This document shows, piece after piece, positions 5,480 to 63,447 of a stretch of 64,000 nucleotides of DNA. The stretch covers positions 2,502,174-2,566,173 of the forward strand of contig OZ241878.1 in the NCBI GenBank assembly GCA_965203365.1. Direction: 5' to 3'. Position numbers and translations under genes: made by a program. How positions within the stretch are numbered: the first letter of the stretch is position 1; the number at the start of each line of letters is the position of its first letter. Below the pieces are notes generated by a model. That model was not told where the DNA came from and ran no database searches. It saw nothing but the letters and a program-made list of their open reading frames with translations. Origin of the DNA: Candidatus Poriferihabitaceae bacterium (GTDB lineage: Bacteria > Pseudomonadota > Gammaproteobacteria > Arenicellales > Poriferihabitantaceae).

Positions 5480-5970
5480 CCGGCACAGCCTCCAGGTGGG
5501 AAAGCCGCGTCACAGGTCGATGTCCCATCCGGCTCCAGGGCGCACCGTTCGAATGCGATCAGCCGATGAACCGGATCCTGAACCAGCGCGAAGGCCGGTC
5601 CGGCCAGCACCCAGAGGGCCTCGCGCAGGGACAAGGGCCCCAATGTCCGATGCACCATCGGGAGGGGCAGGGAAAACAGGTGGAGGGTGTCGGGGGAGTG
5701 GACCGCCGTGGGCGCCAGGCGATAGCCACTTCGATGCAAAAGATGTCGGACCGCCTCCCCCACGGTCTGGACCGCTTCCGGCATCCGGAGAGTCAGGACC
5801 GTACTGAGCAGATCGGTCTGCGCGGCGGTCGGCGTGGGGGTCGACAGCGAGTACCGGCCCATGGGCACTTCCTGCGCCAGAACCGGTGCGCAGACTTGGC
5901 CACCGATCCCGGCCAGACAACTGGCGGTGATCAGGAGACCCCGAAACAAACGGGAGCGGAGGGATGACAT
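5476..5970 (-). CDS. pilL: PilL-like ICE transfer-region lipoprotein
   Basis: Internal start MSSLRSRLFRGLLITASCLAG (lipobox-like). The VGEAVRHLLHRSGYRL...LPLPMVHRTLGPLSLREAL block resembles the conj_PilL family (from memory). The longer ORF to 6225 is Arg/Pro-rich and unlikely to be genuine. Confidence 0.65.
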   Translation of the reverse strand: MSSLRSRLFRGLLITASCLAGIGGQVCAPVLAQEVPMGRYSLSTPTPTAAQTDLLSTVLTLRMPEAVQTVGEAVRHLLHRSGYRLAPTAVHSPDTLHLFSLPLPMVHRTLGPLSLREALWVLAGPAFALVQDPVHRLIAFERCALEPDGTSTCDAAFPPGGCAG

Positions 5971-6080
5971 ATTCGGTCGCCGGGTGGGGAAACGGGGCCG
6001 GATCATCCCGAAGACGGGCCCCGAGCGACAAGGTGAAATGCCGTCGCCGGCTGATGGGATTTTGACGGACGGGGACGGAG

Positions 6081-6998
6081 TTACCGACCGCAATACAGGG
6101 CCACGATCTTGATGCGCTCGTGGCCCAGTTCTCGGCTGATGACCAGGCGGACGGTCTGGTCGATGGCCTGTTGTTCGACGGTGAGATCCCGGACTCGAGG
6201 CCCGTTCGCGGCCGGAGGCGGCCAACCAGCCAAGGCTTCATACCGCCGCTGGGCATAGGCGTGTCGCAGCCCATGCATGCGGGACAGTCCACTGCGCTGG
6301 AGCTCGCGATGATAGACTTTCAGTTGCTGGCGATAGTTCCGGGTACTGGGAATCAACGACCCCTTGCCGGCCAGCCGGTGCGCTGCGTCCAGGAGGGTAC
6401 GTTGCTGGTCGGTGATCACGGGGATGGTCCGGGCCTTCCCGCCCTTGGTCCAGCTGCCCCTGAGCCGGATGTGGTCGCCCTGGTCGGCGTACGAGGGCAT
6501 GAACTTGATCGACTCCTCCCGTCTCAGGCCAAAGGCCTGTTGCAACTTGAGGCTCATCCGCACTCTCGGGTCACGGATCGTGGCCAAGGTGGCGTCATCG
6601 ACGGTTTGGGCCTTGGAGACATTGGTCAGGTAACGTCGGTTGGGAATCCCGTAGAACGCATTGGATCGGGCCACCACACTGTCCCGGCCGACCTTGCGGG
6701 CCCACCAGCGGATGGCCGACATCCTGGGTTTGATGGTGCCGGCCGACAGTCCCTCCGCCAACCAACGCTGCACCAATGCCTCCACATGCTTGGGCTTGAG
6801 GGAGTGGATGCTCATGTGCCGGTATCCCAGTTCGTGCAGTTGATTGGCAATCAAGGTCAGGGTGCCTTGCCGGGCGGCCTGGGTGCCAAAGCCGCCGTCC
6901 CGGTTACGGCGGCACATCTGCTTGAGTTGGTAGTTCAGGTTTCTCACAGTGCAACCCAATCGGTTAGTGTTACTGACCAGACCGGTGGCCTGGGCCAT
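6081..6998 (-). CDS. Tyrosine recombinase / phage-integrase family protein
   Basis: 305 aa. Motifs HGLRHAYAQ and LGHERIKIVALY fit the H-x-x-R ... Y catalytic region. SAM-like N-terminal domain (LKPKHVEALVQRWL). Confidence 0.85.
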   Translation of the reverse strand: MAQATGLVSNTNRLGCTVRNLNYQLKQMCRRNRDGGFGTQAARQGTLTLIANQLHELGYRHMSIHSLKPKHVEALVQRWLAEGLSAGTIKPRMSAIRWWARKVGRDSVVARSNAFYGIPNRRYLTNVSKAQTVDDATLATIRDPRVRMSLKLQQAFGLRREESIKFMPSYADQGDHIRLRGSWTKGGKARTIPVITDQQRTLLDAAHRLAGKGSLIPSTRNYRQQLKVYHRELQRSGLSRMHGLRHAYAQRRYEALAGWPPPAANGPRVRDLTVEQQAIDQTVRLVISRELGHERIKIVALYCGR

Positions 6999-25111: not shown

Positions 25112-25212
25112 TCAGATTAGGTGGCCTGGGCAGACCCGACTGACCAGTGCCACTCTGGGGCATGAGATCGGCTAGGGCAAGGGCTATGCCAAGGGATTCG
25201 AAGCCGGTCAAC
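25112..25212 (+). repeat. 101-bp end of an unclassified IS-like element (copy a)
   Basis: Near-identical to 59913-60013. Its end interrupts the alpha2 signal-peptide coding region just before LALAGC. Confidence 0.7.
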
Positions 25213-26857
25213 TGGTCTGGCCCTGGCGGGCTGCGGTGGGGGCAGTTCGAATGATCCTCCCCCGCCGGCTCCGGGGCAGACGCTGGAGGCCGCGGCGGCG
25301 GAGGCCCTTGATGCGGCGAAGAAGGCTGTCGACCTGGTGACGGACGACTCCGAAAACACCATGGACGCCGACGCGAAGGTGGCGGCCGCCAAGGCGGCCG
25401 TCGACAAGGTGCCTGCCGCGCAGCGGGCCGCCCTCAGCCAGCGGCTCGGGAACCTCGAGGGCACGCTTGAGGGAAAGACGGCGTCCCGCACGGCCGCCAT
25501 GCAGAGGAAGGCGGCCGCCGAGAAGAAGGCCATGGCCGCCACGGGCAAGGCGCTGTTTGCGGCGCTGGACGGGCCGCTTGTACCTGGCACCACCACCGCC
25601 GCAGCCGTCAAGAACGCGCTGGACAACCTGGCGGCTGCGGCCGAGGTGCAGACGGGCCTGTCGAATTCCGGAGACCCGACCGGCATCAAGCTCGATCCTA
25701 CGGACGGCGGCGGGGACTTGCCGATCAGCACCGAGGTCAACGATGTCTACGTCCCCAACGAGTCCCCGGTGGTCTTCACGACCGTCAAACCCGTCAAGAA
25801 GGTAGGCGACTGGATGGTCTCGGACCAGACCGACGGTATCCGGACCGAGGGCCAGTTGGTGCCCGAGTTCACCGACCGGGCCCGGGTGTACAACGATCGG
25901 GGGGAGAATACGAAGAAGGATGCCGCGGCACACTTCGGCTCCGATGACAAGCCGGCTACTACAGGGACCTACACCGCGAAGAATCGCTCGCTGTCCCTGA
26001 ACTTCGCTGTCGATCCGCTCATTGCGTCCCCCGAGTTCCCGGCAGCCGGAACCAAGCTCTTCGCTCCGAAAAACGGAGCCTCGGAGGTCAAGGTGCGGGG
26101 CACCTACCAGGGGGCGCCCGGCTACTATTACTGCAAGACCGACTGCCAAGTCCGGGTGAATAGAGGCGGCCTCTCCATGGGTAACAGTAATGGCGACTGG
26201 AGGTTCGTCCACGACCCGGGCGCCCAGGTGTCCCTCACCGATAGTAGCTACCTGTACTTCGGCTGGTGGGTGAGATCGAACAGCAGCGACGACGTGCCCA
26301 GACTGGCCACCGCCTTTTTCGGCTACGAGGGCTTGATTGATGACAACACCTCGTCCGCCAGAAATTACAACGGCTCGGCGACCTTCGAGGGCCCCGCGGT
26401 CGGCCAGTACGCCATCCACGACCCGCGCAACGGCGAGGGCGAGGGCGGCGCATTCGAGGCGAAGGCCACGCTGAAGGCCCGGTTCGGGGACCCCAACAAT
26501 GTGCGCGATGCGGGCCTGTCCGGCACGATCGACGAGTTTCGGCTGAACGGCGGGTCCGAGGATCCGGGCTGGAGCGTGCAGTTGGTGAAAAGCCGCTTTG
26601 AGAGTGCCGGAAAAAAGGTCACCAGAAGAGGCACCAAGACGGTCATGTCGATCGGCGACGTCAAGGGGCCGGAGGTTCTCAACAGCTGGGAAGCCCGGTT
26701 GTTTGACACCACGCCCGGAACCGTTGCGGATGGCGGCGACGGCCGCGACGAGGCGGACAAGGTCCTCGGAACCTTCTACTCCGAATACAGCACCACCCAT
26801 CGGCTGGTCGGCGCGTTCGGCGCGAGCAACATCACGAAACAGAACGTCAACGACTAG
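25208..26857 (+). pseudogene. SLP alpha2 (promoterless, signal peptide truncated)
   Basis: The body is ~99% identical to alpha1 from codon 62 onward. Only ...STGLALAGCGGGSS remains of the signal peptide. An in-frame stop at 25163 leaves no start codon upstream. Confidence 0.8.
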
Positions 26858-28536: not shown

Positions 28537-29874
28537 TCAGAGTGGTCGGACGAAGCTGAGTTCGGCGCGGTTGCGTTCGAAGTCGAGGGCCTGGGCGTTG
28601 GTGTGGCGTTCCTCGCGGATGAGCGACAGGCGCGGGCTGAAGCCGCGCAGGGTCAGGGCGCGATTGTGGACCGAGAAGGTGAAGGTCCGCGTCTCGTCCC
28701 GGCGGGACTTTCGGTCGATGGTGTGATGGGCGGCGCCGCTTCCCTGATAGTCGGTACGCTCCAAGGCGGTGCGCAGGCCCAGCGTGAAGCCCTTCGGCAA
28801 CGCCAGCGTGGCGCCAAGGCTCACCTGCGGACCCCGGCTACGCCAGTGTTCCACCTTTGCCCGACTCCAGTTCCACCCCACATTCCCGCCCAGGCGCAGC
28901 GTGGGCCGCGCGATCCAACTGGCCCCGAGCGAGATCTCCCCCTCTGGACCATCCAGATGGCCGCAGCCGCGGCAGTTGCGCCGGGCAGCGCTGGTTTGGG
29001 CGGATATCGACAGCCTTGGCGTCAGGCGACGATCCGCCTCCAGCCGCAGGCCGAAGCGATCGGTTTCGGGCCGCCCGGCGGTCCATTGCCGGTCCACGGT
29101 CGCCAGCAGGCTGGCTTCGGAGCGGGCATCGATCAGCCAGCGTGGGCCCAGGTGCAGGGCCAAGGATTGCCGGTCGAACTCCCGACCCCGGTATTCCCGG
29201 AGGCTGGCATTCGCGCCGATGCGCAGCCGCCGGTGGTCCGTCAGTGGGTGCTGGTATTCGCCCCCGCCCCAGAGGGACAGGCCGAGGCCGGATTCAGGCT
29301 TCGCCGGATCGTCCAGGGTGAAGGGCAGCCGCCCGAAGTCCGTGTCAAGGAAGATCGTGCGCTCTCCCGAGGCCGCATTGAGGTTGCTGTCCGGGGCGAT
29401 GGCCGCGCCGAACCAGGCCTCCCACCGCCGCCGCTGCCGCATGACCTGGAGAAAGCGTCGTAAATTGGCCACCACCGCCGGCGGCAGGTCTCCGGCCAGC
29501 ACTTGCTCGAAATGCCGTTTCGCCCGCCTGTCCTCCTCCTTCAGGAAGAAGGCGTACGCCAGTTCGAGGCGCACCCGCACCAGTTCCGGCTGATTCACCA
29601 GGATGGCCCGGAAGGCCGCGATGGCCTCGTCGAGTTTCCCGTCCCGGGTTGCCCGATCCGATGCGGCCCGGGCGGCCTGGAGTGCCGCCATCCCGGCCTC
29701 GAAACGCTGGCCAGTCAGGGCCTCGTCCGAGAGGGCCGTTGCTTCCGTCTTTCCCGTCGGGGTAGCGGGGTCGGCACCGAAGGCGGACGAGGGAGTCCCG
29801 CCGACGGTCACCAGCAGTCCGGCCAGCGGGATCAGCAGGGCCCGGAAAGCGGGGCCGACAGGAAATCGCATCAT
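28537..29874 (-). CDS. Slam (surface lipoprotein assembly modulator, DUF560) outer-membrane protein
   Basis: Signal peptide, then a TPR-like region, then the hallmark LPPAVVANLRRFLQVMRQRRRWEAWFGAAIAPDSNLNAAS, then an alternating beta-strand C-terminal domain ending FERNRAELSFVRPL. ATG chosen at 29872-29874; the ORF track begins at a TTG. Confidence 0.8.
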   Translation of the reverse strand: MMRFPVGPAFRALLIPLAGLLVTVGGTPSSAFGADPATPTGKTEATALSDEALTGQRFEAGMAALQAARAASDRATRDGKLDEAIAAFRAILVNQPELVRVRLELAYAFFLKEEDRRAKRHFEQVLAGDLPPAVVANLRRFLQVMRQRRRWEAWFGAAIAPDSNLNAASGERTIFLDTDFGRLPFTLDDPAKPESGLGLSLWGGGEYQHPLTDHRRLRIGANASLREYRGREFDRQSLALHLGPRWLIDARSEASLLATVDRQWTAGRPETDRFGLRLEADRRLTPRLSISAQTSAARRNCRGCGHLDGPEGEISLGASWIARPTLRLGGNVGWNWSRAKVEHWRSRGPQVSLGATLALPKGFTLGLRTALERTDYQGSGAAHHTIDRKSRRDETRTFTFSVHNRALTLRGFSPRLSLIREERHTNAQALDFERNRAELSFVRPL

Positions 29875-30001
29875 GGCGTCAGGGGGCAATCGGAAAAAAA
29901 GGGGGGAACCGGGAGAAGATCCAGAATCGGGAAGGGGGGTGCCGGAAGTGCTCCCAGGGTCAGGCCGGGAACCGGGGCGGATTCCCGCCTGAACGGGTCG
30001 G

Positions 30002-31582
30002 CTACTCGTTGGTGTCCTTCACGCCGAAGGCACCGACCAGCCGGTGGGGGCTGCCGTACTCGGAGTAGACACTGGCGAGGATCAGGTCCGGCACAGTGTT
30101 GTTGGCTTTTTTCCGGGTATCGAAATACGTGGCGCCTTTCCACTAGCCGGACTCCTTCGCCGGGTTGCCGTTGATCGACCAGACGGTCCTGGCCGACGCA
30201 AGACTGTTACTGGTCGTGCCCGAGCCATATGCCGCTCTTTTCAACTCCACGCTCCAGCCCGAATCCGTGGATCCACCCTTCAGGCGGAACCCGTTGATCG
30301 TGCCGGTCACGCCCGCGTTCTCGACGACGGGGCTTCCGACGGTGTTCCCGAAAATAGCGTTCAGCGTGACGTCTGCCGTGAAGGCGCCGCCGTCGCTGTC
30401 CTCTCTCACCCAGCAGCCGAAGTAGTAGAAGGTCTTATCGGTCACGGTCACTTGGGCACCCTCGTCGTACTGGAAGATCCATTTCTCCAACAGGGGATAG
30501 GCATCGTCCTTGGTATTTTCAACAATTCCGACCTTCAATTCAACCGTGCAGTCGCCAGCGGTGGCGGATGTGCAGCGATAGTTGCCTGGGGCACCCTGAT
30601 AGGTGCCCTGGATGCTGACGACGTTGGTTTCCGTATCCTTCGGCGAATCGAAGTCCGTCTTCCCCGCTGTCGGGAACCCGTCGGACTGGATGTGGATATC
30701 TTCTTTGGTGGCCATATCCCCGTCATGCTTCAGAGGCAGCGTCATCGCAGCCGCATCATGGTTTCCCGCGTTGGGCGGTCGGTCTGTACCCGCGAAGTGT
30801 TTCGCCGCATCCACCTCCATATTCTTCCAGTTGGAGTAGATCCTGGCCCAGTCGGTGACAGTGGAGTAGGTGGAGGGGGCTTCGTTGCCGGTTGGGGTGT
30901 TGGTGAGCCCAGTGCGCCGGTAGTCCGTGACCATCCAGGGAGACCCCTTTCCCACCGACCGGGGTGCCCCGACCGGATCAAGGGCCTTCGTCTTGTGGGT
31001 GCCGAGTGCTTTATCCTTGTCGTCGAGCGGCATCGACCCCGCGCCGTCCACGGGATTGACCTCCAGCTGAGGGAGGCCGACCTCAAGGACCTTGCTCCCG
31101 TCAGTGCCCGTGGCCTTGAGGCGAAAGTCTTGCTCAATGTTGTTCAGCGCGGTCAGGTTGGTCTGGGCACTGCCGTCCGAGTCCTTGGGCCCGGCCAGCG
31201 CCGCAAACATCGCCTTGCTGGTGGCGACGTTCTTGGCCTTCATGGCGGTCGTGCGCGACTCCTTCGCTTCGTTAAGCATGCCCACGAGGTTCCCGAGCTG
31301 CTGGCTGAGGGCGGCCCGCTGCGCAACTGGCACCTTGTTGACGGCCGTCCGGGCCGCCGCCAGCTTCGTATCGGCGTCGGTGACCTTGGCGTCATCGGCA
31401 GTGTCCGTCACCGCCTCGACGGCGGTCTTCGCCGCCGCGGCCCGTTGCGCCGGGGTTTGGGTCATGGTGCCATCGCCATCATTGTTCGTATTCGGGATGG
31501 TACTGTTGTTGCCGCCGCCGCAGCCAGCCAAAGTCAGCAAGGCGGCCAGCAGGACAGTCATCAAGAGATTGGGAGTGTTCAT
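30002..31582 (-). pseudogene. SLP gamma (TbpB-like) with a single in-frame TAG
   Basis: MNTPNLLMTVLLAALLTLAG|C lipobox. TAG at 30143-30145 sits where paralogs have Ser/Asn (GSW/NSW/GNW). The same frame continues for 46 codons, WKGATYFDT...VYSEYGSPHRLVGAFGVKDTNE, to a TAG at 30002-30004. Confidence 0.8.
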
Positions 31583-31746: not shown

Positions 31747-31775
31747 ACTATAAAACGAGGGGGGGGGTGGGTCAA
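31747..31775 (-). promoter_or_regulatory. Putative gamma promoter with a C9 tract in the spacer
   Basis: On the minus strand: TTGACC (31770-31775), a 17-nt spacer (ca, C9, tcgttt), then TATAGT (31747-31752). Confidence 0.5.
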
Positions 31776-33180: not shown

Positions 33181-33254
33181 CGTCATCCGATCTGCCTGCC
33201 CGAAGCAGACAGGAACGAAAATCAAAATACAATTCTAAGATCCTGAAAGGTGCG

Positions 33255-33440
33255 GCCGCCCGGCAGCAGCATCCGGCGGTGGAATCCGCGATCAACCATC
33301 GGGAGCACCGGGGATTGGATCGGGTCAGGACGCCTGGTGCTGAGGGCTTTGCCCGCACCGGGGCCGGGTCGATGCGGGCGTTCAATCTCCATCGATTGGG
33401 GGGGTTGCTGCGTCGCCGGATGCGGGAGGCCGAGCGCTGA
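33255..33440 (+). mobile_element. Transposase C-terminal remnant
   Basis: HPAVESAINHREHRGLDRVRTPGAEGFARTGAGSMRAFNLHRLGGLLRRRMREAER*. TGA at 33438-33440. Confidence 0.45.
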
Positions 33441-33444
33441 CGAA

Positions 33445-35094
33445 GGCGAGATGACCCCGCCGCCTCCGGGGCTGACGCTGGAGGCCGCGGCGAAGACGGC
33501 TGTCGGCATGGTGACGGACGACTCTGACGCCGCGGCGGTCACCGACGCCGAGAAGAAGGTGGCGGCCGCCAAGGCGGCCGTCGACAAGGTGCCTGCCGCG
33601 CAGCGGAACGCCCTCATCCGGCGGCTCGGGAACCTCGAGGGCAAGCTTGGGGGAAAGACGGCGTCCCGCACGGCCGCCATGGCGATGAAGGCGAAGGCCA
33701 TGGTTGCCCGCGGCAAGGCGCTGCTCGGGGCGATGACGAAGCCCGATGGTGACGACAAGACGGTGCTGGACAATCTCGAGAGCGATCCTGTCTACAACGA
33801 CCTCCTCGTCGATGATGCGACGTACGATGACGGTGCCCGCAAGGCCGTCCGGGCGAAAAACTACCTGGACCGGCCTCGGGGAGACTTCCGGATTGATCCT
33901 GCGGCGGGTGCGGGGTCGCGAGCGACGTCGGATCTGCATGGTGCGGTGAGCTTCCGGCACGGCACGGAGGAGGCCAGGGACGCCGAGGAGAAGGTGGACG
34001 GCGTGTGGACGGTCACGGACTACGTGAGGACCCAGGGCTCTGGCGAAGGGAAGTTCACCGACAAGGTCAAGGTGTACAGCGACCGGACGGGGCCGAACTC
34101 CATTCCGGCCGCGAAATGGTTCTCTGATTCGGGTGCCAAGGCCTCCTACACGGCCAACGCGGGGACCTACACCCCGGCGGAACGCAGGATATCCCTGAAC
34201 ACCGGGACCGACCACAGCATCGACTCCCCCGATTTCCCGGAGACGGGCACCAAGCCCTTCGCTCCGACAGACGGAGCCGATGAGGTCCAGGTCCGGGGCT
34301 CCTACCGGGGGGCGCCCGGCTACTACTACTGCACCCCCGGCACCAGTGAATCCTGCACGGTCGGGGTCGGGCAAATCGGCTACTTCCTGAGCGCCGGCTG
34401 GACGTTCGTCCATGACGAGGGGGCCATGGTGATCCACCCCGATACTGACTTTGCGTACTTCGGCTGGTGGTTGAGAGAGGACGACGACGGCCTGCCCGCG
34501 GCGGTCGCCCCCTTCTACGCCACCAGAGGCGGCGGCGTCGGGATCACCTCGGACGGCAACAGCCTGATCGGCGGCGAGGCGACCTTCGAGGGTCCCGCAG
34601 TCGGCCAGTATGCCATCCACGACCCGCTCGACGGCAAGGGCGAGGGCGGCGCGTTCACGGCGACGGCCCTGCTGAAGGCCAAGTTCGGAGCCAGCAACTT
34701 GGTGCCCGACACGGGCATGACCGGCACGGTCGACAAGTTCCGCCTGGAAAACGGGTCCGAGCCGAACTGGAGCGTGACGCTGAACAGGGGTGGCCCTGGC
34801 AGCACCCCTGCTTCGGATAATCGAGGCGGATGGAGGGCTGGCGCCAAGACGGACCCCGCCGCCAAGACGGTCTGGTCGATCGATGGCAACAAGGCGCTGG
34901 CGGCCGGCAGCTGGGTTGCCACGATGTATGATGAAACGCCCGATTTGCCCACGGTTGCCAGTGGCGGTATCACCAAACCGGTCGGCGACGGCAACAACAA
35001 TCCGACCCTGGTGCTCGGAAAGTTCCATGCCGAATACGGCGGCACCCACCGACTGGTCGGCGCCTTCGGCGCGAAGAGGGTTGTTGAAGAGTAG
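33445..35094 (+). pseudogene. SLP beta2 (promoterless, no signal peptide)
   Basis: Nearly identical to beta1 at a 4130-bp offset (33620-35111). The N-terminus is replaced by an IS remnant and there is no lipobox. Confidence 0.8.
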
Positions 35095-39224: not shown

Positions 39225-39519
39225 GAGCAGCCATCGAACGGGGGCGTGCATGCGTCTCCGCAGCGGCGCCGTCTCGCCCGCCAACGTCAGTCCGACCTCC
39301 GATGGCGACATGGCGGGCGAGTTCGGCGTCGCGAGGGGTGCAGGTGGTGTCGTTCCCTGACCCCTGATCGGGCGCCTGGCTTGGTATTGCCTTCTCCTTT
39401 CCAGGCCGGATGTCCTCCCTTTCTCACACCGCATTCGGATGCTGCGCGGGCGGGTTTGGTGTGTCATGTTGTGAAAAAAACCGCTGGACACTCGTTTTTT
39501 TGTGGCCCAGTCCGGGGCA

Positions 39520-48574: not shown

Positions 48575-49453
48575 TCAGGCGATCACCCCCGCCTGTCGCA
48601 TCGCCGCGGCCACGGTGTCCTGGCAGGAGTCCGACAACCAAGTCAAGGGCAGGCGGATGCCCTTCGGGATCCATCCCATTTGATGCAAAGCCCATTTCGA
48701 GGGGATGGGGTTCGACTCGATGAACAAGCTGCGATGCAGTCCGTCCAACTCCTCGTTCAGCCGGTCGGCCGTGTCATGGTCTCCTGCCAGGGCGGCCCGA
48801 CACATCGCCCGCATTTTGGCCGGAGCGACATTGGCGGTGACCGAAATACACCCATGCCCGCCCGCTTTCATGAACGCCAGGGAACTGACGTCCTCACCGG
48901 AATAGAGCCGGAAATCCGCGGGACATCGGGCCAGAAAATCCGCCACTCTCGGAATATCCGAAGTCGCGTCCTTGATCCCCACGATATTGTCGATTTCCGC
49001 CAGCCGAACCACGGTATCATTATGCATGTCCAAGGCGGTTCTGCCGGGGACATTGTAGAGGATCTGCGGCACCCCGACCTGCTCGGCAATATGTCGAAAG
49101 TGACGATAGAGTCCTTCCTGGGTGGGCTTGTTGTAATACGGCACCACCAGCAAACACCCGAGAATGTCGAGTTCGGCCGCACTTTTCGTCAACTCCAAGG
49201 CTTCATGAGTGGAGTTCCCACCGGTTCCCGCAATCACCGGAATCCGACCGCGGGCATACTCGACCGTCCGGGCGATGACCTCGATTTGTTCGGGAATATC
49301 CAAGGTGGCGGATTCTCCCGTGGTGCCGACCGAGACGATCCCATCGGTGCCGCTGTCGATATGGAATTCCACCAGTTTCTTCAGGCTGTTGAAATCCACC
49401 CCTCCCTCTTCGAACATGGGGGTGACCAAGGCGACCAGACTGCCGGTAATCAT
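48575..49453 (-). CDS. dapA: 4-hydroxy-tetrahydrodipicolinate synthase
   Basis: MITGSLVALVTPMFEEGGVDF...VSVGTTGESATL...YNKPTQEGLYRHF aligns by eye with E. coli DapA. An alternative start lies at 49459. Confidence 0.95.
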   Translation of the reverse strand: MITGSLVALVTPMFEEGGVDFNSLKKLVEFHIDSGTDGIVSVGTTGESATLDIPEQIEVIARTVEYARGRIPVIAGTGGNSTHEALELTKSAAELDILGCLLVVPYYNKPTQEGLYRHFRHIAEQVGVPQILYNVPGRTALDMHNDTVVRLAEIDNIVGIKDATSDIPRVADFLARCPADFRLYSGEDVSSLAFMKAGGHGCISVTANVAPAKMRAMCRAALAGDHDTADRLNEELDGLHRSLFIESNPIPSKWALHQMGWIPKGIRLPLTWLSDSCQDTVAAAMRQAGVIA

Positions 49454-49597
49454 TGCCATGTGACCAATTTCGCGATTCATGAAACAGATAGAGATGGCGT
49501 GGATGGTATCGCCTGACCGAGAATCAAGCAAGAGGCGCCGCTTGCAAGACCCCGCCTTCGAGGGGATTGTTCCCCAAAACAGATGATTTTTCTGCCG

Positions 49598-49942
49598 GAG
49601 GAGGTGGGCGGGCCCATTTACGGCGGGTGGCTCAAGACATCCGGGAACGACGGTGCCTTGACCGCGAGCGCGTTCTATGGCGAGCGGGTCAGGGGGTCGT
49701 CGGGCGTCAGTCGTGCAAACCCCTTCCGTACGTTGAGGGGACAGGCGACCTACGAGGACGGGGCAGCCAGCCTTTACACGCTCCACCGCCCCGTCGGCGC
49801 AAGGAACGAGGCCGGCCCGTTCGCCGCGGACACCATGGTTGAAGCGAACTTCGATAGCCTGACAATCAAGGGGATCCCCAGCCACTTCAGGACCGGCGCC
49901 CTCGGGGAGCGTCGTAAAGTCAGCGGGATGAGCGGGCGTTAA
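49598..49942 (+). pseudogene. SLP fragment (delta'-like C-lobe piece)
   Basis: YGGWLKTSGNDGALTASAFYGER...GQATYEDGAASLYTLH...GPFAADTMVEANFDSLTIKG..HFRTGALG compares with delta' YGWWLKKSGDGPWTASAFYGER...ATYEGGSAGLYALH...FVADAMLEANFDTQKIKG.LSNFRTGALG. Confidence 0.7.
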
Positions 49943-51395: not shown

Positions 51396-51758
51396 CTAGA
51401 GCAACTTGACCAGCGCGACGATCAGTCCTCCCTGGGCGATCAGTGCGCTGAACATCCATTTCAGCAGATCCGCCTTGACCTGCGCCATATCGGCCTTGGT
51501 CCCCTGTCGCAAGGCTTCGATATCGGCCTTGGTCTCCTGTCGCAAGGCTTCGATATCAGCCTTCGTGGCCTGTTTCAGTGCCTCGATATCGGCCTTGGTC
51601 CCCTGTCGCAAGGCTTCGATATCGACCTTCGTGGCCAAATTGGTATTGAGCAGGGCGACCTGCTCCTCAGCCAGCGTTTCCGCCTGCAGCTCAGTAAAGC
51701 CGCTGCCCGTCAAACGCTTGACAAAGCGGTGCGTATCAAATGCGATGGCCTCGGTCAT
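51396..51758 (-). CDS. DUF1640-like coiled-coil, C-terminally anchored protein (short allele)
   Basis: MTEAIAFDTHRFVKRLTGSGFTELQAETLAEEQVALL..., about 4.6 units of an 11-aa repeat, then TM segment LLKWMFSALIAQGGLIVALV. Confidence 0.75.
   Translation of the reverse strand: MTEAIAFDTHRFVKRLTGSGFTELQAETLAEEQVALLNTNLATKVDIEALRQGTKADIEALKQATKADIEALRQETKADIEALRQGTKADMAQVKADLLKWMFSALIAQGGLIVALVKLL
51487..51640. repeat. 33-bp in-frame tandem repeat (~4.6 units)
   Basis: Unit atatcggccttggtc.cctgtcgcaaggcttcg encodes (T)KADIEALRQ(E/G). Confidence 0.85.
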
Positions 51759-52074
51759 GAGGGAAATTATAGACCATCCGCTCCGGCCCAACAAGCCTCG
51801 GCCAAGTCGTCTCCCGGCCGGTCCGTCGCGACCCGGTCGACCGTCATTCGCCCCATCCCGGGGCTGTCATTGACCCCCACCTGACAAATGGTCAGGGAGG
51901 GGGATCCCGGAGCCGGGGTTTCATGGCCGGGTACATGACCGTGGAGTGCCTCAGCAACCCCATGGCCTGCCAGAGTTTCGCCGCGCCGGGCAGCGGCGGG
52001 CGTTGGGAGGGATGAACCCCGATCCGCCGGGCGAGGTCGACCACGCCGGTCGCCAAGGAGAGGGGGTTATCCGG

Positions 52075-52272
52075 TGGGTCAGGGTGGGGGGGGCTGTGGG
52101 CGCATTGTGGCAAAATCGGGTCAGCAGGGACCCCAAGGGGGATGGTCTCGGCCGGTCATCGGGAAATTCGATCAGATTCTCTTGTTTTATAGAGATTGCC
52201 TATTGTTTTGCTGGGGGAACTGGCGACGGACCGAGCCGGGTCGCCCGAAAAAGAGGCGTTTTCTGCCAGACA
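52075..52272 (+). repeat. 198-bp IS-end-like repeat R2 (copy b)
   Basis: Inverted copy of 31878-32075. Abuts the stop codon of the second DUF1640 gene. Confidence 0.7.
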
Positions 52273-52273
52273 A

Positions 52274-52930
52274 CTAGAGTATCTTGACCAGCGCGACGAC
52301 CAACGCGACGATCAGTCCTCCCTGGGCGATCAGTGCGCTGAACATCCATTTCAGCAGATCCGCCTTGACCTGCGCCATATCGGCCTTGGTCTCCTGTCGC
52401 AAGGTTTCGATATCAGCCTTGATCTTCGCCATATCGGCCTTGGTCTCCTGTCGCAAGGCTTCGATATCCGCCTTCGTGGCCTGTTTCAGTGCCTCGATAT
52501 CGGCCCTGATCTGCGCCACATCGGCCTTGGTCTCCTGTCGCAAGGCTTCGATATCCGCCTTCGTGGCCTGTTTCAGTGCCTCGATATCGGCCCTGATCTG
52601 CGCCACATCGGCCTTGGTCTCCTGTCGCAAGGCTTCGATATCCGCCTTCGTGGCCTGTTTCAGTGCCTCGATATCGGCCTTGGTCTCCTGTCGCAAGACT
52701 TCGATATCAGCCTTCGTGGCCTGTTTCAGTGCCTCGATATCGGCCCTGATCTCCGCCACATCGACCTTGGTCTTCTGTCGCAAGGCTTCGATATCGACCT
52801 TCGTGGCCAAATTGGTGTTGAGCAGGGCGACCTGCTCCTCAGCCAGCGTTTCCGCCTGCAGCTCAGTAAAGCCGCTGCCCGTCAAACGCTTGACAAAGCG
52901 GTGCGTATCAAATGCGATGGCTTCGGTCAT
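52274..52930 (-). CDS. DUF1640-like coiled-coil protein (expanded allele)
   Basis: Same N-terminal 45 aa and C-terminal TM as 51396-51758, but ~13 repeat units. The 395-aa ORF reading in from the GFA pseudogene is a read-through artefact. Confidence 0.75.
   Translation of the reverse strand: MTEAIAFDTHRFVKRLTGSGFTELQAETLAEEQVALLNTNLATKVDIEALRQKTKVDVAEIRADIEALKQATKADIEVLRQETKADIEALKQATKADIEALRQETKADVAQIRADIEALKQATKADIEALRQETKADVAQIRADIEALKQATKADIEALRQETKADMAKIKADIETLRQETKADMAQVKADLLKWMFSALIAQGGLIVALVVALVKIL
52370..52810. repeat. 33-bp in-frame tandem repeat (~13 units, with 99-bp higher-order periodicity)
   Basis: Visible periodicity in DNA and in the translation (TKADIEALKQA TKADIEALRQE TKADVAQIRAD ...). 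Confidence 0.85.
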
Positions 52931-53094
52931 GAGGAAATTATAGCCCATCCACTCCGGCCCAACAAGCCTCGGCCAGGTCGGCTCCGAAAGCGTTCCGTCT
53001 GACGGGAAAACTGCGGGCGTCTCCGCTGGAACTCGACCCCGACGCCCGCCCGTTCTCTTCCGCGTCGGACTCGGCTTCCAAGCCGACTTCACCC

Positions 53095-53461
53095 ACCAGC
53101 CCCGGCGCAAGCCAAGGCTTGACCCCCGTGGTCCAGCGATCACTGGTGGGGCAATGCCCGAGGGTTCGTCGAGCATACCGGCCTGCAGGCTGATCGTGAG
53201 GCCGCCTTCCCCGCGAACGCCCCCACCCGCACGATCGAGTCGGGTACCGCATGCGCCCCAGCGCGAGCAGGGTTTCACGCCTCTCGAGTCGCCTCTCGTG
53301 TGGTAAAGGCGCCGCTCGGGGCCTGTGAACTCGACTGCGTCCCACTCCATCCCCATTGACAGCCCAAACGCGCTTGAGGACTGCTTCTGGCCAATCATGC
53401 AGTGGCAGGCGTAGAGCGCAACCGGGGCGCGAAGAAGCCGGTAGCGGATTGCACCGCACAC
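53095..53461 (-). pseudogene. GFA-family (CENP-V/glutathione-dependent formaldehyde-activating-like) gene, frameshifted
   Basis: CGAIRY...ACHC..CQKQSSSAF...C..CGTRL...GMLDEP in one frame, then ...HCPTSDRWTTGVKPWL in another. The N-terminus also looks shortened. Confidence 0.45.
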
Positions 53462-56659: not shown

Positions 56660-56948
56660 TCTCTTTCACCAAGGTGTTTGTGGAACGGCGCGGCCCGGTC
56701 AGGGCCAACCCGCCAGGACAGGAATGAGGATAACACATCGATCAGCGCAATCAACAAATCAGCCAGGGTCTGACAGGACGATTCTATTGTCGGACAACGG
56801 GTGATGTGGGCGTGTTCAGGCGACCATTGGAGAAAGCGTTTCGTTGTCTGCGTACCCGTTTGGGCCACGTGGAGCTGCCATCGACTGCATCGAAGGCAGC
56901 CACGCACTGGTTCCCGACATTGATTCGAGAAAACAATGGTCCTGAGGC

Positions 56949-56972
56949 TTGACAGGAGGGGGGGGGTACAGT
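56949..56972 (+). promoter_or_regulatory. Putative delta promoter with a G9 tract in the spacer
   Basis: TTGACA (56949-56954), gga plus G9 (56958-56966) giving a 12-nt spacer, then TACAGT (56967-56972). Confidence 0.45.
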
Positions 56973-57134
56973 TGCCGGTCAGTCTGCCCGAACGGTTGAA
57001 CGCAGGGCGGCTGATCAAGCGATGCAATGCAGGTTGGTGTTTGGGTTCGGCCAGGGGGTGCACCCCCTGGCCGGGTTCCCGGGCAGCCGGACCGGCAGGG
57101 CCTCGGAATACCAAATCTGCAACGTGAACTGAAC

Positions 57135-58781
57135 ATGAACAAACACAATGTCTTAATGGCGGTCTTGCTGGCCGCTGGGTTGGCCTTGGCGGGCTGCGGG
57201 GGCGGCAGCGGTCCGGCGACGGCCCCGAACGACGGCGAGATGACACCCGAGATGACCCCGGCGCAACTTGCTGACGCGGCGGACAAGGACCTCAAGGCGG
57301 CGGAGACGGCTGTCGGCAGGGTGACGGACACGGCCGATGACGCCAGGGTCACCGACGCCGATACGAAGGTGAAGGCGGCCAAGGCGGCCGTCAACCAGGT
57401 GCCTGCCGCGCAGCGGGCCGACCTCAGCGAGCGGCTCGGGAAGCTTGAGGCGAGGCTTGACGCCGCGAAGGTGTCCCGCACGGCCGCCCTGGAGAAAAAG
57501 AGGATGGCCGAGGCCGCGGCGATGAAGGAGACGGCGGGCAAGCTGTATGCCGGCATTGCCGCGAGAAATTTTGGTGGCAGTAATAGTGTAGGGCGGCGGG
57601 GTGCGTACTTTGATGATCAGAATCTCAAGGTGCAGATTGACGGGAATGAGGTTACCCTGAAAAAAGACAAGGAGGCGATGGTCCCGGCGATCAAGGACTG
57701 GGTGGGAGAGAAGTACACCCTGACCGAAGGTGTCGATACCTACGAGGCCTATATTTACGGCGATATGGCGGAAGGCAGTTTGAAGACGCTCAAGGAAAAG
57801 CATGACGAATATGACGAAACCACCGGCGTGTTGCCCTGGGCAGAAGTCCTGAGAAGCTCTGGCTCCCGCATTGGACGCACTGGTTTCGGCATCACAGCCG
57901 GGTACAAGACTTACCCGCCAGATAATCCCGGCGGCACCGAGGTGACGATCAAGGGCACCTACCTCGGCGTACCCGGCACCTACCGGTGCGTGCCGAATAA
58001 AGGTTATCGGTGCGCAGCGTATCTGTACGTCGAAAACAATGATGATAAGGAAACCATCGTTCTTACCGGACAGCAGATCGAAAATGAAGGGTACCGGAAC
58101 GATAACGTGACTTGGACGTTCAAGGCGGACGACCCGAAGGCCAAGGTCAGGCAGGCGGACGCGGTCGGCTGGTCCATGTACGGCTGGTGGATCAAGAAGT
58201 CCAGTGACACTGGTACCTTGACCGCAAGCGCGTTCTATGACATCAGGAGCGGGAGTGTGACGGGAGTCGACAGGACAAATGTACCCCAGCAGATACACGG
58301 CGATGCGACCTATGAGGGTGGGGCCGCTGGCCTGTACGCACTCTACAGCAACCCCAGCAGTGGGCACGACGCCGGCCAGTTCGTTGCAGACGCCCGGTTT
58401 GAAGCGAACTTCGATACCGACAAGGTCAGTGGTGTCATCAACAACTTCAGGACAGGCAACCTCGGGACGTCACCGGAAAGGCCGCGGGACTGGTCCGTCG
58501 AACTGATGCCGGTGAATATTAAGAATAACAATACCAGCGTGAGTAGTAGTACGCCTAATGCAGGCGCCCATGGCGAGACCGAAAAGACCAAATGGACCAT
58601 CGGCGGAACCGCTGCAGCAGCCTCCGGCAACTGGTTCGGAGGGTTCAGTCAGAAGGATAATGGCATCGGCAAGAGCGTAATCCCGCAGACGGTAATCGGG
58701 AACTTCTACTCCGAATACGGCCGGGTGGGCAAGATCGTCGGCGGCTTCGGGGCGAATCTGAAGACGCAGACGGAGGAGTAG
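57135..58781 (+). CDS. Surface lipoprotein delta (TbpB/fHbp-like, intact)
   Basis: The first 75 nt are identical to alpha1/beta1 (MNKHNVLMAVLLAAGLALAG|CGGGS). YGWWIKK motif and barrel signature GDATYEGGAAGLYA...FVADARFEANF...GVINNF...WSV...GNFYSEYG..GKIVGGFGA. Confidence 0.85.
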   Translation: MNKHNVLMAVLLAAGLALAGCGGGSGPATAPNDGEMTPEMTPAQLADAADKDLKAAETAVGRVTDTADDARVTDADTKVKAAKAAVNQVPAAQRADLSERLGKLEARLDAAKVSRTAALEKKRMAEAAAMKETAGKLYAGIAARNFGGSNSVGRRGAYFDDQNLKVQIDGNEVTLKKDKEAMVPAIKDWVGEKYTLTEGVDTYEAYIYGDMAEGSLKTLKEKHDEYDETTGVLPWAEVLRSSGSRIGRTGFGITAGYKTYPPDNPGGTEVTIKGTYLGVPGTYRCVPNKGYRCAAYLYVENNDDKETIVLTGQQIENEGYRNDNVTWTFKADDPKAKVRQADAVGWSMYGWWIKKSSDTGTLTASAFYDIRSGSVTGVDRTNVPQQIHGDATYEGGAAGLYALYSNPSSGHDAGQFVADARFEANFDTDKVSGVINNFRTGNLGTSPERPRDWSVELMPVNIKNNNTSVSSSTPNAGAHGETEKTKWTIGGTAAAASGNWFGGFSQKDNGIGKSVIPQTVIGNFYSEYGRVGKIVGGFGANLKTQTEE

Positions 58782-59439
58782 CACCGCCCGCAGAATAGCG
58801 CCTCGCCACGGCGCCGTCTCGCCCGCCAGCGTCGGTCCTAAACCTCAATGGTGACCTGGCGGGTGCCTTCGGCGGCACGCGGGGGCAGATCCTCATAAGC
58901 GCAGGACGATTCTTTGTCCGGCCGGTCATGATCGGGCCAGCAATTTCCGCCAAGGAAATCCCCCCGTGGATTCGGCGGGATTTTCGGGTGCAGAGGCATG
59001 ATGCCCCGTATTCGGGGGGCGCGAGCCATCCGTTCATCTGGCCAGGGCCAATGGGCCTTGGGGGCGGTGTGGTTTCGGGTCGTGTTGAACCGTGAACCGT
59101 TTGCGTCGGGCCGGGGGGACCCGAAGAAGAGCCCCCTCGGGGTCGCTGACATCCCATGAGATTGCATCCAGCTGCTCCGGGGTGATATCCGGCTTGAGGA
59201 GTGCACTGCGCCCGGGTGGGGCCGGCGTTTCGCGTGGGGGGCGTGATGTTCCGGGCAGCGTCGTCGGCCAGAAGGGATGACCGGATTAAGGAGTACAGAC
59301 GGCCCGTCCCTTCACGACCGGAACGCTCCCCGCGTAGCGGAAGTCATTTTTTCCCTGAAAAGTCTTGATTCCGGATTGAAATTTCGGGGGGGTAGGTAGA
59401 ATGAATCCTGCTGATGCAAGACCCGCACCGCCCCCCGGA

Positions 59440-60221: not shown

Positions 60222-61838
60222 CTACTCCTCCGTCTTCAGGTTCGCCCCGAAGCCACCGACCATCTTGCCCACACCGCCGTACTCGGTATAGAAGTTCCCG
60301 GTCATCACCTTCGGGCGCAAGGTCCCGCCGCGACCGCTATCCTGCTGGGTGAATTTTCCGGTCCAGTTGCCAGAGGCATCCGCAGCGGTCCCGCCGATGG
60401 TCCACTTGGTCCTTTCGGTCGCTTTCCAGTCGCCTATGTTTTCCGTGGTCGAGTTCTTGATCTCCGCCGACATCAGTTCGACCGACCAGTCCCGCTGGCT
60501 TTCCGGCGACGTCCCGAGGGCGCCGGTCCGGAAGTTGCTGAGGGTCCCCTTGATCTTCTGGGTATCGAAGTTCGCTTCAAGCATGGCGTCTGCAACGAAC
60601 TGGCCGGCGTCGTTGGTTCCGCCGGTAGGGCTGTGCAGCGCGTACAGGCCGGCGGACCCGCCCTCATACGTCGCCTTTCCCTTCACCAAATCGCCATTTG
60701 CAGTACCGACAGTTATGTCATTTAGTGACGGCCGCTCGCCATAGAACGCACTCGCGGTCCAGGGGCCGTCCCCGGACTTCTTGAGCCACCAGCCGTACAT
60801 CGACCAGGCAGTATAGTCTATCTGCATTATCTTGGCCTTCGGATCATCGGCCTTGAACGTCCAGTCCGCCAGGGTGTTCGCGTAATTGTTTTCGTCCTCC
60901 CCGAGAAGGTCGACGCCTTCCTCACCCTCTGAGTTGATGGACAATCGCGCGGCGCACTTGTGGTCGGCGGCGGTGGGCGTGCACCGGAAGGTGCCGGGGA
61001 TGCCGTAGTAGGTGCCCTTGATCGTCACCTCGGTGCCACCACCCAGTTCGTATACCTTGTACCCGCTCGTGATGCCAAAGCCAGCGCGTCCGATCCCATT
61101 TCCGTTGGAATACAGGGCAGCCTTGTCCAATACCCCGGTCGTATCGTCATACTCGTTGCCGTGCTTGTCCTCAAGCGTCTGGAACTCGCCTTCCGAAACA
61201 TCGCCGTAGACATAGGCCTCGTAGGTATCCCGACCGTCGGTCAAGGTGTACTTCTCTCCCCTCCAGCCCTTGATGGCCGGGACCATCGCCTCCTTGTCCG
61301 TCTTCAGTTCCTTCACGACCTTCTCGATCTGCACCCTGAGCACCTGGCTGGCAAAGATCGCATTCCGCCGGCCCGTGAATTCACTGGTGCGACCCCCGGT
61401 GCGCCTGAAAATGCCGTGATACAGCTTGCCCGCCGTCTCCTTCATCGCCGCGGCATCGGCCATCCTCTTTTTCTCCAGGGCGGCCGTGCGGGACACCTTC
61501 GCGGCGTCAAGCCTCGCCTGAAGCCTCCCGAGCCGCTCGTTGAGGTCGAGGTCGGCCCGCTGCGCGGCAGGCACCTTGTCGACGGCCGCCGCGGCCGCCT
61601 TCACCTTCGCCTCGGCGTCGGTGACCTTGGCGACATCGGCCGTGTCCGTCACCATGCCGACAGCCGTCTCCGCCGCCTTGAGGTCCTTGTCCGCCGCGTC
61701 AGCAAGTTGCGCCGGGGTCATCTCGGGTGTCATCTCGCCGTCGTTCGGGGCCGTCGCCGGACCGCTGCCGCCCCCGCAGCCCGCCAAGGCCAACCCAGCG
61801 GCCAGCAAGACCGCCATTAAGACATTGTGTTTGTTCAT
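60222..61838 (-). CDS. Surface lipoprotein delta' (TbpB/fHbp-like, intact)
   Basis: Same signal and lipobox; roughly 65% identical to delta by eye after residue ~60. YGWWLKK motif and barrel signature GKATYEGGSAGLYA...GNFYTEYGGVGKMVGGFGA. Confidence 0.85.
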   Translation of the reverse strand: MNKHNVLMAVLLAAGLALAGCGGGSGPATAPNDGEMTPEMTPAQLADAADKDLKAAETAVGMVTDTADVAKVTDAEAKVKAAAAAVDKVPAAQRADLDLNERLGRLQARLDAAKVSRTAALEKKRMADAAAMKETAGKLYHGIFRRTGGRTSEFTGRRNAIFASQVLRVQIEKVVKELKTDKEAMVPAIKGWRGEKYTLTDGRDTYEAYVYGDVSEGEFQTLEDKHGNEYDDTTGVLDKAALYSNGNGIGRAGFGITSGYKVYELGGGTEVTIKGTYYGIPGTFRCTPTAADHKCAARLSINSEGEEGVDLLGEDENNYANTLADWTFKADDPKAKIMQIDYTAWSMYGWWLKKSGDGPWTASAFYGERPSLNDITVGTANGDLVKGKATYEGGSAGLYALHSPTGGTNDAGQFVADAMLEANFDTQKIKGTLSNFRTGALGTSPESQRDWSVELMSAEIKNSTTENIGDWKATERTKWTIGGTAADASGNWTGKFTQQDSGRGGTLRPKVMTGNFYTEYGGVGKMVGGFGANLKTEE

Positions 61839-62000
61839 GTTCAGTTCACGTTGCAGATTTGGTATTCCGAGGCCCTGCCGGTCCGGCTGCCCGGGAACCC
61901 GGCCAAGGTGTGCACACCCTGGCCGAACCCAAACACCAACCTGCATTGCATCGCTTGATCAGCCGCCCTGCGCTCAAACGTTCGGGCAGACTGACCGGCA

Positions 62001-62035
62001 ACTGTACCCCCCCCCCCCCCCCCCCCTCCTGTCAA
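62001..62035 (-). promoter_or_regulatory. Putative delta' promoter with a G20 tract in the spacer
   Basis: On the minus strand: TTGACA (62030-62035), gga plus G20 (C-run 62007-62026) giving a 23-nt spacer, then TACAGT (62001-62006). Confidence 0.45.
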
Positions 62036-62224
62036 GCCTCAGGACCATTCTGCAGCCATTCCCGCCAAGGACATCCCCCGGTGGATTCGGCGGGATGTCC
62101 TGGCGCCCCCGCCCGCAGGGGAAATCTGCGGACAGGACGGCCCCGCCAGCGGGCGGCCGGATCGACGATAGGCCCTGGGTTTCCTGAAGCACCGGCCGAT
62201 CCCCCACTCGGTCACGGCATCAAG

Positions 62225-62630
62225 TCAGGCCGGGTCGAAGGGCTCCCCATCAGGCGGGCGGTGCCCGAACACGATGGCTTGGGACCCCGTCTCCCCGTCC
62301 GGGAGGGGGAACCCCCCGAACCCGCCGCGCCACGGTCTCCCCCCGCGGGGGGGACGACCCGACTTCACCCGGGCGGCCTGGCACAGCGCACCGCACCGCT
62401 GCGGCACCGGATCGATGAGGAATGCCCGCCTCGTCCGATGGGCGAACCCCGCCGCCAGATGTTGCTTGCCGTGACCGAAGGGGTGGTACCAAGCCATCCC
62501 CTGGGTTCTTCAGGGGGTTGAAGGGTTCGTTCTCAATCCGCCAGCGGGCGGTCGGGATGGCGTCCTCGGACAGCCAGTCGGCGGCGGACTTTTCGGGCGT
62601 ATCCCGAGCGGCGCGTTGCAGATCGAACAC
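62225..62630 (-). mobile_element. DDE transposase C-terminal remnant (RWRIENE...FGHGKQHL type), frameshifted
   Basis: ARWRIENEPFNPLKNPG, then in another frame YHPFGHGKQHLAAGFA...AFLID. Confidence 0.55.
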
Positions 62631-63064: not shown

Positions 63065-63200
63065 GTGCGAGCGGGACGAGCCCGTTGGCGCATCGAGAAC
63101 GAGACCATCAAACCCCTGAAGAACCCATGGGATGGCATGGATTTCGGGGCATTGAGCCACCGCCATGGACATACGGCGTCAGCCCCGGACTGGCTGGCCA
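63065..63200 (+). mobile_element. Second remnant of the same transposase type (inverted)
   Basis: ARWRIENETIKPLKNPWDGMDFG. Confidence 0.45.
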
Positions 63201-63447
63201 ACTGGCAAAGTGCGTTCCCGTCAAGCGTACGTAGAAGATCAAGGGCGTGGGGGGCGGCATTAGCGTCGATCAAACAAAGAACCGGCGGGGCCCGCATCAG
63301 ATGATATGGGTCATACCCTGCTTCAAACCCAGTCCAGAATTGTGCCAGACAAATCAGGCCATCATGCCCTTGTCGTACCCAATCAAAGTTCGGTACTCTG
63401 TTCCCTCCCCCACCAAGACCCGCAGGCGACCTGCGCGAACCCGCTTG

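Follow-up and report, generated by a model that had tools for sequence, protein, structure and literature searches.

Can a run of guanosines placed exactly between the -35 and -10 hexamers of a gene act as a length-variable switch for a surface lipoprotein (SLP) in an uncultured, probably sponge-associated proteobacterium? Phase variation through homopolymers in promoter spacers is textbook knowledge for host-restricted pathogens (Neisseria, Treponema, Haemophilus and Mycoplasma). The question is raised here by a 64,000-nucleotide (nt) stretch of contig OZ241878.1 with a GC content of 64%, referred to as the window, to which all tract and promoter counts apply, on both strands. It contains two inverted, convergent paralogous genes labelled SLP delta and delta', each preceded by the arrangement TTGACA-gga-Gn-TACAGT. 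The reading favoured here, to which a probability of roughly 0.6 was assigned, is that this arrangement constitutes a phase-variable sigma-70-type promoter that would drive each SLP copy, with a spacer altered by slippage.

At delta, the -35 hexamer TTGACA (56949-56954, plus strand) matches at six of six positions and is immediately preceded by a c (cTTGACA). It is followed on the same strand by gga (56955-56957), a G9 homopolymer (56958-56966) and the -10-like hexamer TACAGT (56967-56972), which matches at four of six positions with A2 and T6 present, giving a spacer of 12 nt. The delta' promoter occupies 62001-62035 on the minus strand and consists of TTGACA (62035-62030), gga (62027-62029), a tract that is C20 on the plus strand and therefore G20 in the direction of the gene (62007-62026), and TACAGT (62006-62001), giving a spacer of 23 nt. 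The two promoters oppose each other at a distance of about 5 kb. Both copies thus carry a homopolymer of at least about 8 nt between recognisable -35 and -10 hexamers, a defining feature of spacer-length phase-variable promoters. Reading the sequence directly confirmed the hexamers, the flanks and the spacers of 12 and 23 nt that the original prediction had reported for the two copies, and its arithmetic holds, with a G14 tract yielding a 17-nt spacer (3 + 14). Its statement that both copies are off or weak is a logical reading of these lengths, given that a standard scan found no sigma-70-like site with a 16-18-nt spacer in the upstream region of either delta or delta' as assembled, and hence no evident alternative promoter.

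Alignment of the delta and delta' arms bore out the further claim that tract length is the sole difference between the promoter copies. The inverted-repeat arms extend over about 500 nt with 97% identity, and the 11-nt difference in the tract is their only indel ahead of a 6-nt indel in the coding region. Homology between the copies starts abruptly at AATGGTCCTGAGGC, 23 nt ahead of the tract, so that the shared upstream flank (56935-56957, plus strand; AATGGTCCTGAGGCTTGACAGGA) just includes the -35 box and ends with the pre-tract gga. These 23 nt and the 28 nt that follow the tract carry no substitutions between the copies, the first substitution being at position 56995. The identity of about 97% spans the leader of about 160 nt and the first 97 or so codons, including one stretch of about 220 nt that is 100% identical, and past codon 100 or so the identity of the two proteins drops to about 62-66%. 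Since the 5' arms are near-identical but the gene bodies have diverged, the 5' module of promoter, leader and signal peptide was homogenised recently. Likewise, because the tract has diverged by 11 nt while its flanks remain unsubstituted, tract length changes faster than point mutations build up.

To judge these arrangements against chance, homopolymers and promoter-like sites were counted. The C20 run is by far the longest homopolymer of the window, the runner-up being 9 nt. By estimates from base composition, a 9-nt run is unremarkable alone (about 2 per window) and a 20-nt run is far beyond chance (about 1e-5 per window). A relaxed sigma-70-like scan (spacer of 10-25 nt, at least 10 of 12 hexamer matches, both strands) was then compared with 100 Markov-1 simulations. 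Six sites were found, four of which have a G/C run of at least 7 in the spacer: delta (G9), delta' (G20), 59376-59402 (G7) and 31775-31747 (C9). Three of these four are independent. The simulated expectation per window was 3.8 sites, with 0.02 carrying such a spacer run, and G/C runs of at least 7 are scarcer overall than expected (29 observed vs 41 expected). The pairing of hexamers with tracts therefore exceeds chance.

Of the promoter-like sites between 20 and 40 kb, the C9 site is the best. It reads TTGACC-caC9tcgttt-TATAGT on the minus strand (31747-31775, with the C9 at 31759-31767), has exactly the optimal spacing of 17 nt (N17), and sits 164 nt upstream of the SLP paralogue g31582 (30023-31582, minus strand). 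On the coding strand the tract consists of C, not G, and in an alignment of the leaders its position does not coincide with that of the delta promoter. Because it differs in both base and position it arose independently, and the SLP promoter-spacer tract has therefore originated at least twice. As g31582 lies directly upstream of the gene for Slam, the presumed translocon of the SLP family, the C9 promoter may drive an SLP-Slam operon, in which case a change of tract length could affect the translocon itself. Within g31582 there is an in-frame stop at 30143-30145 (…KESG*WKG…), 40 codons ahead of the conserved C-terminus. The remaining tract-bearing site, TTGAAA-tttcG7tagg-TAGAAT (59376-59402, plus strand; spacer 15 nt), is located in the 1.4-kb intergenic region between delta and delta'. 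This intergenic region is itself a mosaic of fragments repeated at 51857-52056, 25112-25212, 39264-39343 and 62053-62096.

The region downstream of the hexamers provides a separate line of evidence. The delta leader (56979-57134, plus strand; about 156 nt) is predicted to be structured, with a 5'-terminal hairpin at 56979-57014 and a conserved central hairpin at 57049-57072. The same fold is predicted for the delta' leader (61839-61994, minus strand), in which the conserved hairpin is at 61901-61924. Compared with shuffled sequence, the delta leader has a much stronger predicted fold (z = -3.6), and covariation among the SLP paralogues is seen in its central hairpin. All five substitutions that separate the delta and delta' leaders are structure-neutral: those at 56995 and 57000 fall in the loop of the 5' hairpin, those at 57057 and 57064 form a compensatory pair, and that at 57067 gives a G.U pair. 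The probability that five random substitutions would break no pair is 0.013. As G.U pairing is possible in the sense RNA alone, transcription is likely to cover the region from about 56979 onward. The 5' hairpin also begins where a start site 6-7 nt after TACAGT would fall, and the structure-neutral substitutions fit a predicted transcription start near 56979. A strongly structured leader of about 140-165 nt is common to delta, delta', g31582 and two further paralogues, g37467 and g24665, whatever the position of the promoter, and the conserved block CGATGCAATGCAGGTTGG is present in all of these leaders. No Rfam family matches the leader or any other part of the window. The leader may represent a new cis-regulatory or mRNA-stabilising element.

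Under the favoured reading the G tracts would be hypermutable spacers whose length is changed by slipped-strand mispairing. Efficient transcription would be expected only at about n = 13-15, corresponding to a spacer of 16-18 nt, and this would be the ON state. The assembled consensus, with its G9 (12 nt) and G20 (23 nt), would represent the OFF state of both copies. The delta transcript would begin close to 56979, where the 5' hairpin has its base, and would extend through the leader of about 156 nt up to the ATG at 57135. Three elements of this model are inferred for both copies: where transcription starts, that expression depends on the length of the tract, and that the population switches reversibly.

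The genes behind these promoters encode lipoproteins. The delta coding sequence (57135-58781, plus strand) specifies 548 amino acids and begins with the lipoprotein signal peptide MNKHNVLMAVLLAAGLALAGC, and that of delta' (60222-61838, minus strand; ATG at 61838) specifies 538 amino acids, with the first 97 or so codons nearly identical to those of delta and an overall identity between the two proteins of about 66%. Both signal peptides contain a lipobox cysteine (MNKHNVLMAVLLAAGLALAG, then C), and the LAGC lipobox in each is in agreement with their earlier designation as lipoproteins. For the delta protein, no Pfam family was found at E <= 0.01, TbpB-type domains included, and there was no meaningful sequence hit in the PDB, so that sequence comparison did not place it in a curated family. 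An AlphaFold model was therefore generated from an 80-sequence alignment (mean pLDDT 83.7) and compared with the PDB using Foldseek. In the model, beta-rich domains follow a long N-terminal helical hairpin of about 100 residues. The seven PDB matches with E <= 0.001 are all Slam substrates of Neisseria (HpuA, TbpB and fHbp), with HpuA the best, and the C-terminal barrel of NHBA fell just beneath this cut-off. The top matches had probabilities of 0.92-1.00 and target-normalised TM-scores of up to 0.57 for entries that comprise only the barrel; the low global TM-scores of the model are explained by delta being a multi-domain protein. The modelled delta protein thus has a TbpB-like C-terminal beta-barrel and a predicted TbpB/HpuA/fHbp-like fold. 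Genes for surface lipoproteins of this kind are typically phase-variable.

A Slam gene is present at 28537-29889 on the minus strand (PF04575, E = 1e-20, together with a TPR_Slam domain). It is located directly downstream of g31582, inside a cluster of about ten further SLP paralogues (21.5-42.6 kb). Delta and delta' lie 27-32 kb from Slam, and despite this distance SLP is a reasonable label for them. The SLP cluster (21445-42552) contains inverted repeats of 2671 nt (100% identity), 1759 nt (99%), 1345 nt (100%) and 1320 nt (98%), and several of its copies have no intact signal peptide or start codon (e.g. 25166-26857 and 33247-35094). In these respects it looks like a recombining array of expressed and silent members. 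Two proteins encoded by the same genome outside the window, P0001 and P0002, share the signal peptide. From about residue 80, P0001 matches delta at about 100% identity, but its first 40 residues are 97% identical to the N-terminus of the g37467/g24665 type. In the window, the g37467-type 5' end is preceded by a tract-free promoter, TTGAAG-N18-TATAAT. The mosaic structure of P0001 indicates that 5' cassettes have been exchanged between gene bodies.

Several other features of the window adjoin these genes. Conjugative-element genes at 536-20883 (a TraD/TraG-type coupling protein, an integrase, an AcaB regulator, TraG_N and TraU) border the SLP/Slam cluster, which may therefore be on or beside an integrative conjugative element. 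An SLP-homologous fragment at 49439-49906 (plus strand) is about 45% identical to residues 290-444 or so of delta and delta'. It opposes the 5' part of a dapA-like open reading frame (48575-49885, minus strand), whose DHDPS domain begins only at residue 146, and probably represents the remains of a decayed paralogue. At 51408-52937, direct repeats of about 130-185 nt are densely packed, irregularly spaced by 21 to 87 nt in multiples of 3, and lie partly within a gene for a coiled-coil protein (52274-53461, minus strand) that matches GFA and CCDC90-like Pfam families. A C9 tract (51327) and a G8 tract (52086) are found near these repeats. The G8 tract was considered as a second length-variable tract and rejected, as it differs from its repeat copy by substitutions and not by length. 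Two short frames, at 62250-62630 (minus strand) and 63065-63304 (plus strand), share a motif (RWRIENEPFNPLKNPGDG and RWRIENETIKPLKNPWDG, respectively) that resembles the C-terminal signature of DDE transposases, and the one frame of the pair that was scanned gave no Pfam match. If they are degenerate insertion sequence (IS) remnants, they sit just upstream of the delta' promoter.

Beyond the source genome, the SLP family is widespread in metagenome-assembled genomes (MAGs) of many phyla, with names or bin labels that indicate a link to sponges (among them Poriferihabitaceae, Ca. Synechococcus spongiarum and Entotheonellaceae), and also occurs in apparently sponge-associated MAGs of Chloroflexota, Binatia, Nitrospinota, Acidobacteriota, Cyanobacteria and further groups. 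We take these MAGs to derive from sponge data sets. The body of delta' is 72-92% identical to a protein (P0005 / L003) of an alphaproteobacterial Paracoccaceae MAG (OZ241902.1), and only about 62% identical to its neighbour delta. This distribution suggests horizontal spread of the family within the sponge microbiome. Closer relatives of the delta locus were not encountered: exact-protein look-ups for delta, delta', P0001, P0002 and DctM returned no matches; the variable-gap promoter pattern gave 0 metagenome hits, with no relatives of the delta protein in the same metagenome scans; and the best match in the genome-contig collection was 54% identical, so that this collection holds no close strain. 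The delta promoter is absent from all 78 related loci, as is any tract at the orthologous position, and the tract promoter is therefore specific to the delta lineage of the source genome.

Other kinds of repeat were present at some of these loci. In the three closest orthologues, perfect tandem repeats lie just upstream of the ribosome-binding site, about 20 nt before the start codons: a 14-nt unit in 5.4 copies in L003 (2516-2591), a 13-nt unit in 3.3 copies in L001 (2955-2997) and about one copy in L002 (about 2700-2740). L003 and L002 are from two Paracoccaceae genomes with the same flanks and differ in repeat copy number. A search for tandem repeats upstream of all family members found convincing arrays only in L001 and L003. 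On a Ca. Rariloculaceae plasmid (L020, OZ242032.1), a second SLP-like lipoprotein gene (4952-6495), directly downstream of a 1470-residue family member, has a C26 tract (4977-5002) in its 5' coding region. The C26 is out of frame, and C24 or C27 would yield a lipoprotein of 513/514 residues with a proper signal peptide. The C26 is a candidate for a translational phase switch, unless it reflects a homopolymer error of 1 nt. An IS end or dispersed repeat was also considered as the source of the delta tract, since TTGACAGGGGGG recurs in other MAGs inside C6-TTGACA-G6 palindromes near transposases. It was rejected because the delta flank has no C-run partner, and the absence of any other copy of this flank in the window beyond the shared promoter pair supports that decision. 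Such palindromes, of the form C6-TTGACA-G6 or C6-TGTCAA-G7, were observed beside transposase genes in L004 (about 1931), L019 (about 1557), L028 (about 5651) and L073 (about 4981). They place a perfect -35 hexamer next to G runs and resemble the delta -35/tract junction superficially, and appear to be unrelated to it.

Wherever it could be tested in silico, the interpretation put forward in the original prediction was supported, within the limit set by sequence analysis. A number of observations nevertheless weigh against a phase-variable promoter. The OFF states of well-studied loci usually differ from ON by 1-2 units. Both tracts here are 5-6 steps off the predicted optimum (5 short and 6 long), which is unusually far, and the promoters may be locked off or decaying and not switching. 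The -10 hexamer has just four of six matches, and the length of G20 is probably imprecise if the assembly was made from long reads. The variability of the tract is judged from one comparison of two paralogous copies, which differ by 11 nt, and no close relative among the 78 related loci shares the delta promoter. With respect to the other tract-bearing sites, g31582, the gene behind the optimally spaced C9 promoter, has a premature stop, and there is no convincing open reading frame downstream of the 59376 site, so that not every tract-bearing site in the window is obviously functional.

Some of these observations would be accounted for if delta and delta' were silent cassettes with decaying promoters, acting as unexpressed donors to expressed paralogues by recombination while the tract drifts without selection. 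Neither the 12-nt nor the 23-nt spacer comes near the functional range and no alternative promoter was found, P0001 carries a delta body on a g37467-type 5' end of the kind that lies behind a tract-free promoter in the window, and the SLP family is full of perfect inverted repeats and mosaic fragments. We nonetheless regard this explanation as rather unlikely. Both reading frames are intact with complete signal peptides, the structure of the leader RNA has been kept by compensatory change, which argues for selection on the transcript, and a perfect TTGACA, a -10 box and a leader would be needless for a silent cassette. The explanation also overlaps with the favoured reading, as a reservoir copy can still be phase-variable. 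Sequencing or assembly error, by which the tract lengths, and especially G20, would be consensus artefacts and the true lengths perhaps similar, was judged highly improbable. Long homopolymers are error-prone in long-read consensus sequences, the single 3.70-Mb contig suggests a long-read assembly, and the C26 of L020, one base off an in-frame length, could reflect the same kind of error. Both tracts are, however, flanked on either side by unique, well-assembled sequence and, in contrast to the junk tracts in L043, lie away from contig ends; homopolymer miscalls are typically far smaller than 11 nt, and a run as short as G9 can be called reliably. The G20 count could well be off by 1-2 nt, which would leave the anatomy unchanged.

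It is improbable, too, that the hexamers are not the working promoter and that transcription starts instead from a weak site within the leader (TTGAAC-N21-TGCAAT), or from an activator-dependent or alternative-sigma promoter, with the tract determining how far an activator site lies from the -10 box, like the C-stretch of Bordetella fim, or having no role. The four-of-six -10 hexamer would suit such an arrangement, as would the use by g37467 and g24665 of a promoter-like site further downstream in the homologous leader and the block CGATGCAATGCAGGTTGG, a candidate regulator-binding site. The internal delta site, however, has a 21-nt spacer, is without A2 of the -10 box and appears in neither scan's list. 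A minimal sigma-54-like GG-N10-GC (GGgggtacagtTGC) is present at any tract length, but against the -24/-12 pattern TGGCAC-N5-TTGCW the segment GGGGGG-TACAG-TTGCC matches only at GG and TTGC, with all other TGGCACG positions missed, and a sigma-54 promoter was therefore set aside as unlikely. The 5' hairpin, substituted only in its loop, starts right after the proposed -10 box, and the enrichment of tracts precisely within -35/-10 spacers would be hard to explain otherwise. A role through a G-quadruplex was also rejected as a function shared by both tracts, given that G20 could form such a structure and G9 cannot.

The mechanism of the favoured reading is already known from porA, fetA, opc, tp0126 and the tpr genes. 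What is new is the apparent host setting, the pairing of inverted copies whose tracts are markedly unequal in length, and the link to a recombining multigene SLP family. In Neisseria meningitidis, porA (poly-G) and fetA and opc (poly-C) have a G/C tract between or overlapping the -35 and -10 elements, and slippage alters the spacing and thereby transcription (PMC2791445; PMC7864442). The locus described here resembles these in having a homopolymeric G/C tract in the promoter of an outer-membrane or surface protein gene. It differs in that the organism is an uncultured, probably sponge-associated proteobacterium and not a human pathogen, and in having two inverted paralogous copies with lengths of 9 and 20, both far from the optimum. 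The G20 is also longer than the tract lengths known for porA. In Treponema pallidum, tp0126 has a poly-G tract between the -35 and -10 elements with an optimum of 17 nt, and tprE/G/J/F/I/L, a paralogous family of putative outer-membrane proteins, have poly-G promoter tracts; the treponemal tracts comprise about 7-12 G's, vary in vivo and affect reporter expression (PMC7864442). As in the tpr family, individual paralogues here each carry a promoter tract; unlike in Treponema, the comparison is between two copies, and the proteins are of another fold class (TbpB-like lipoproteins).

Tracts and repeats in other positions provide further comparisons. Poly-G phase variation of Neisseria hpuA acts by translational frameshift through a tract inside the reading frame (PMC3786947), in agreement with what the original prediction had stated. 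The delta model finds its best structural match in HpuA, itself a surface lipoprotein that depends on Slam, but the tract described here is in a promoter spacer and would act on transcription; the C26 of L020 is closer to the hpuA arrangement. Neisseria hmbR is grouped with hpuA as a poly-G phase-variable comparison. The TA repeats of Haemophilus influenzae hifA/hifB and the TAAA repeats of N. meningitidis nadA, located in or beside the promoter, modulate surface structures (PMC2791445). The repeat units differ from those found here, as does, for nadA, the position relative to the core promoter; repeats of the nadA type, outside the core promoter, resemble instead the 13/14-nt arrays upstream of the L001 and L003 orthologues. 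With the Slam-dependent TbpB, LbpB, fHbp and HpuA (the family of Hooda et al.; PMC5449769), delta and delta' share the lipobox, a modelled C-terminal barrel of the TbpB/fHbp type and paralogues around Slam. Unlike the known Slam substrates, they have no Pfam or PDB sequence match, possess an N-terminal helical hairpin of about 100 residues, are at least 27 kb from Slam and belong to a family spread over many phyla of apparently sponge-associated MAGs.

A broader and more tentative proposal is that the locus is one visible part of a multi-layered contingency system in sponge-associated bacteria, acting on horizontally spread Slam-type lipoproteins. Such a system would combine promoter-spacer homopolymers (G9, G20 and the C9 ahead of the SLP-Slam pair) with frameshifting coding tracts (the C26 of the Ca. 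Rariloculaceae plasmid), copy-number-variable 13/14-nt repeats upstream of orthologues, and recombinational swaps of 5' promoter/leader/signal-peptide cassettes between gene bodies. Full-text literature searches turned up nothing on Slam lipoproteins in sponges, and just one paper, an unrelated one, in which phase variation is mentioned along with sponge symbionts. If the proposal is true, the system would be, as far as these searches show, the first described case of phase or antigenic variation in sponge symbionts, with host recognition or phagocytosis as its presumed target.

If the delta and delta' promoters are indeed phase-variable, a design familiar from pathogens would extend to Slam-type lipoproteins of an uncultured bacterium, in a family found otherwise almost only in sponge-named MAGs. 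This would point to stochastic surface variation among the beneficial or commensal symbionts of an early-branching animal as well, and would bear on how symbionts escape phagocytosis or immune recognition by the sponge.

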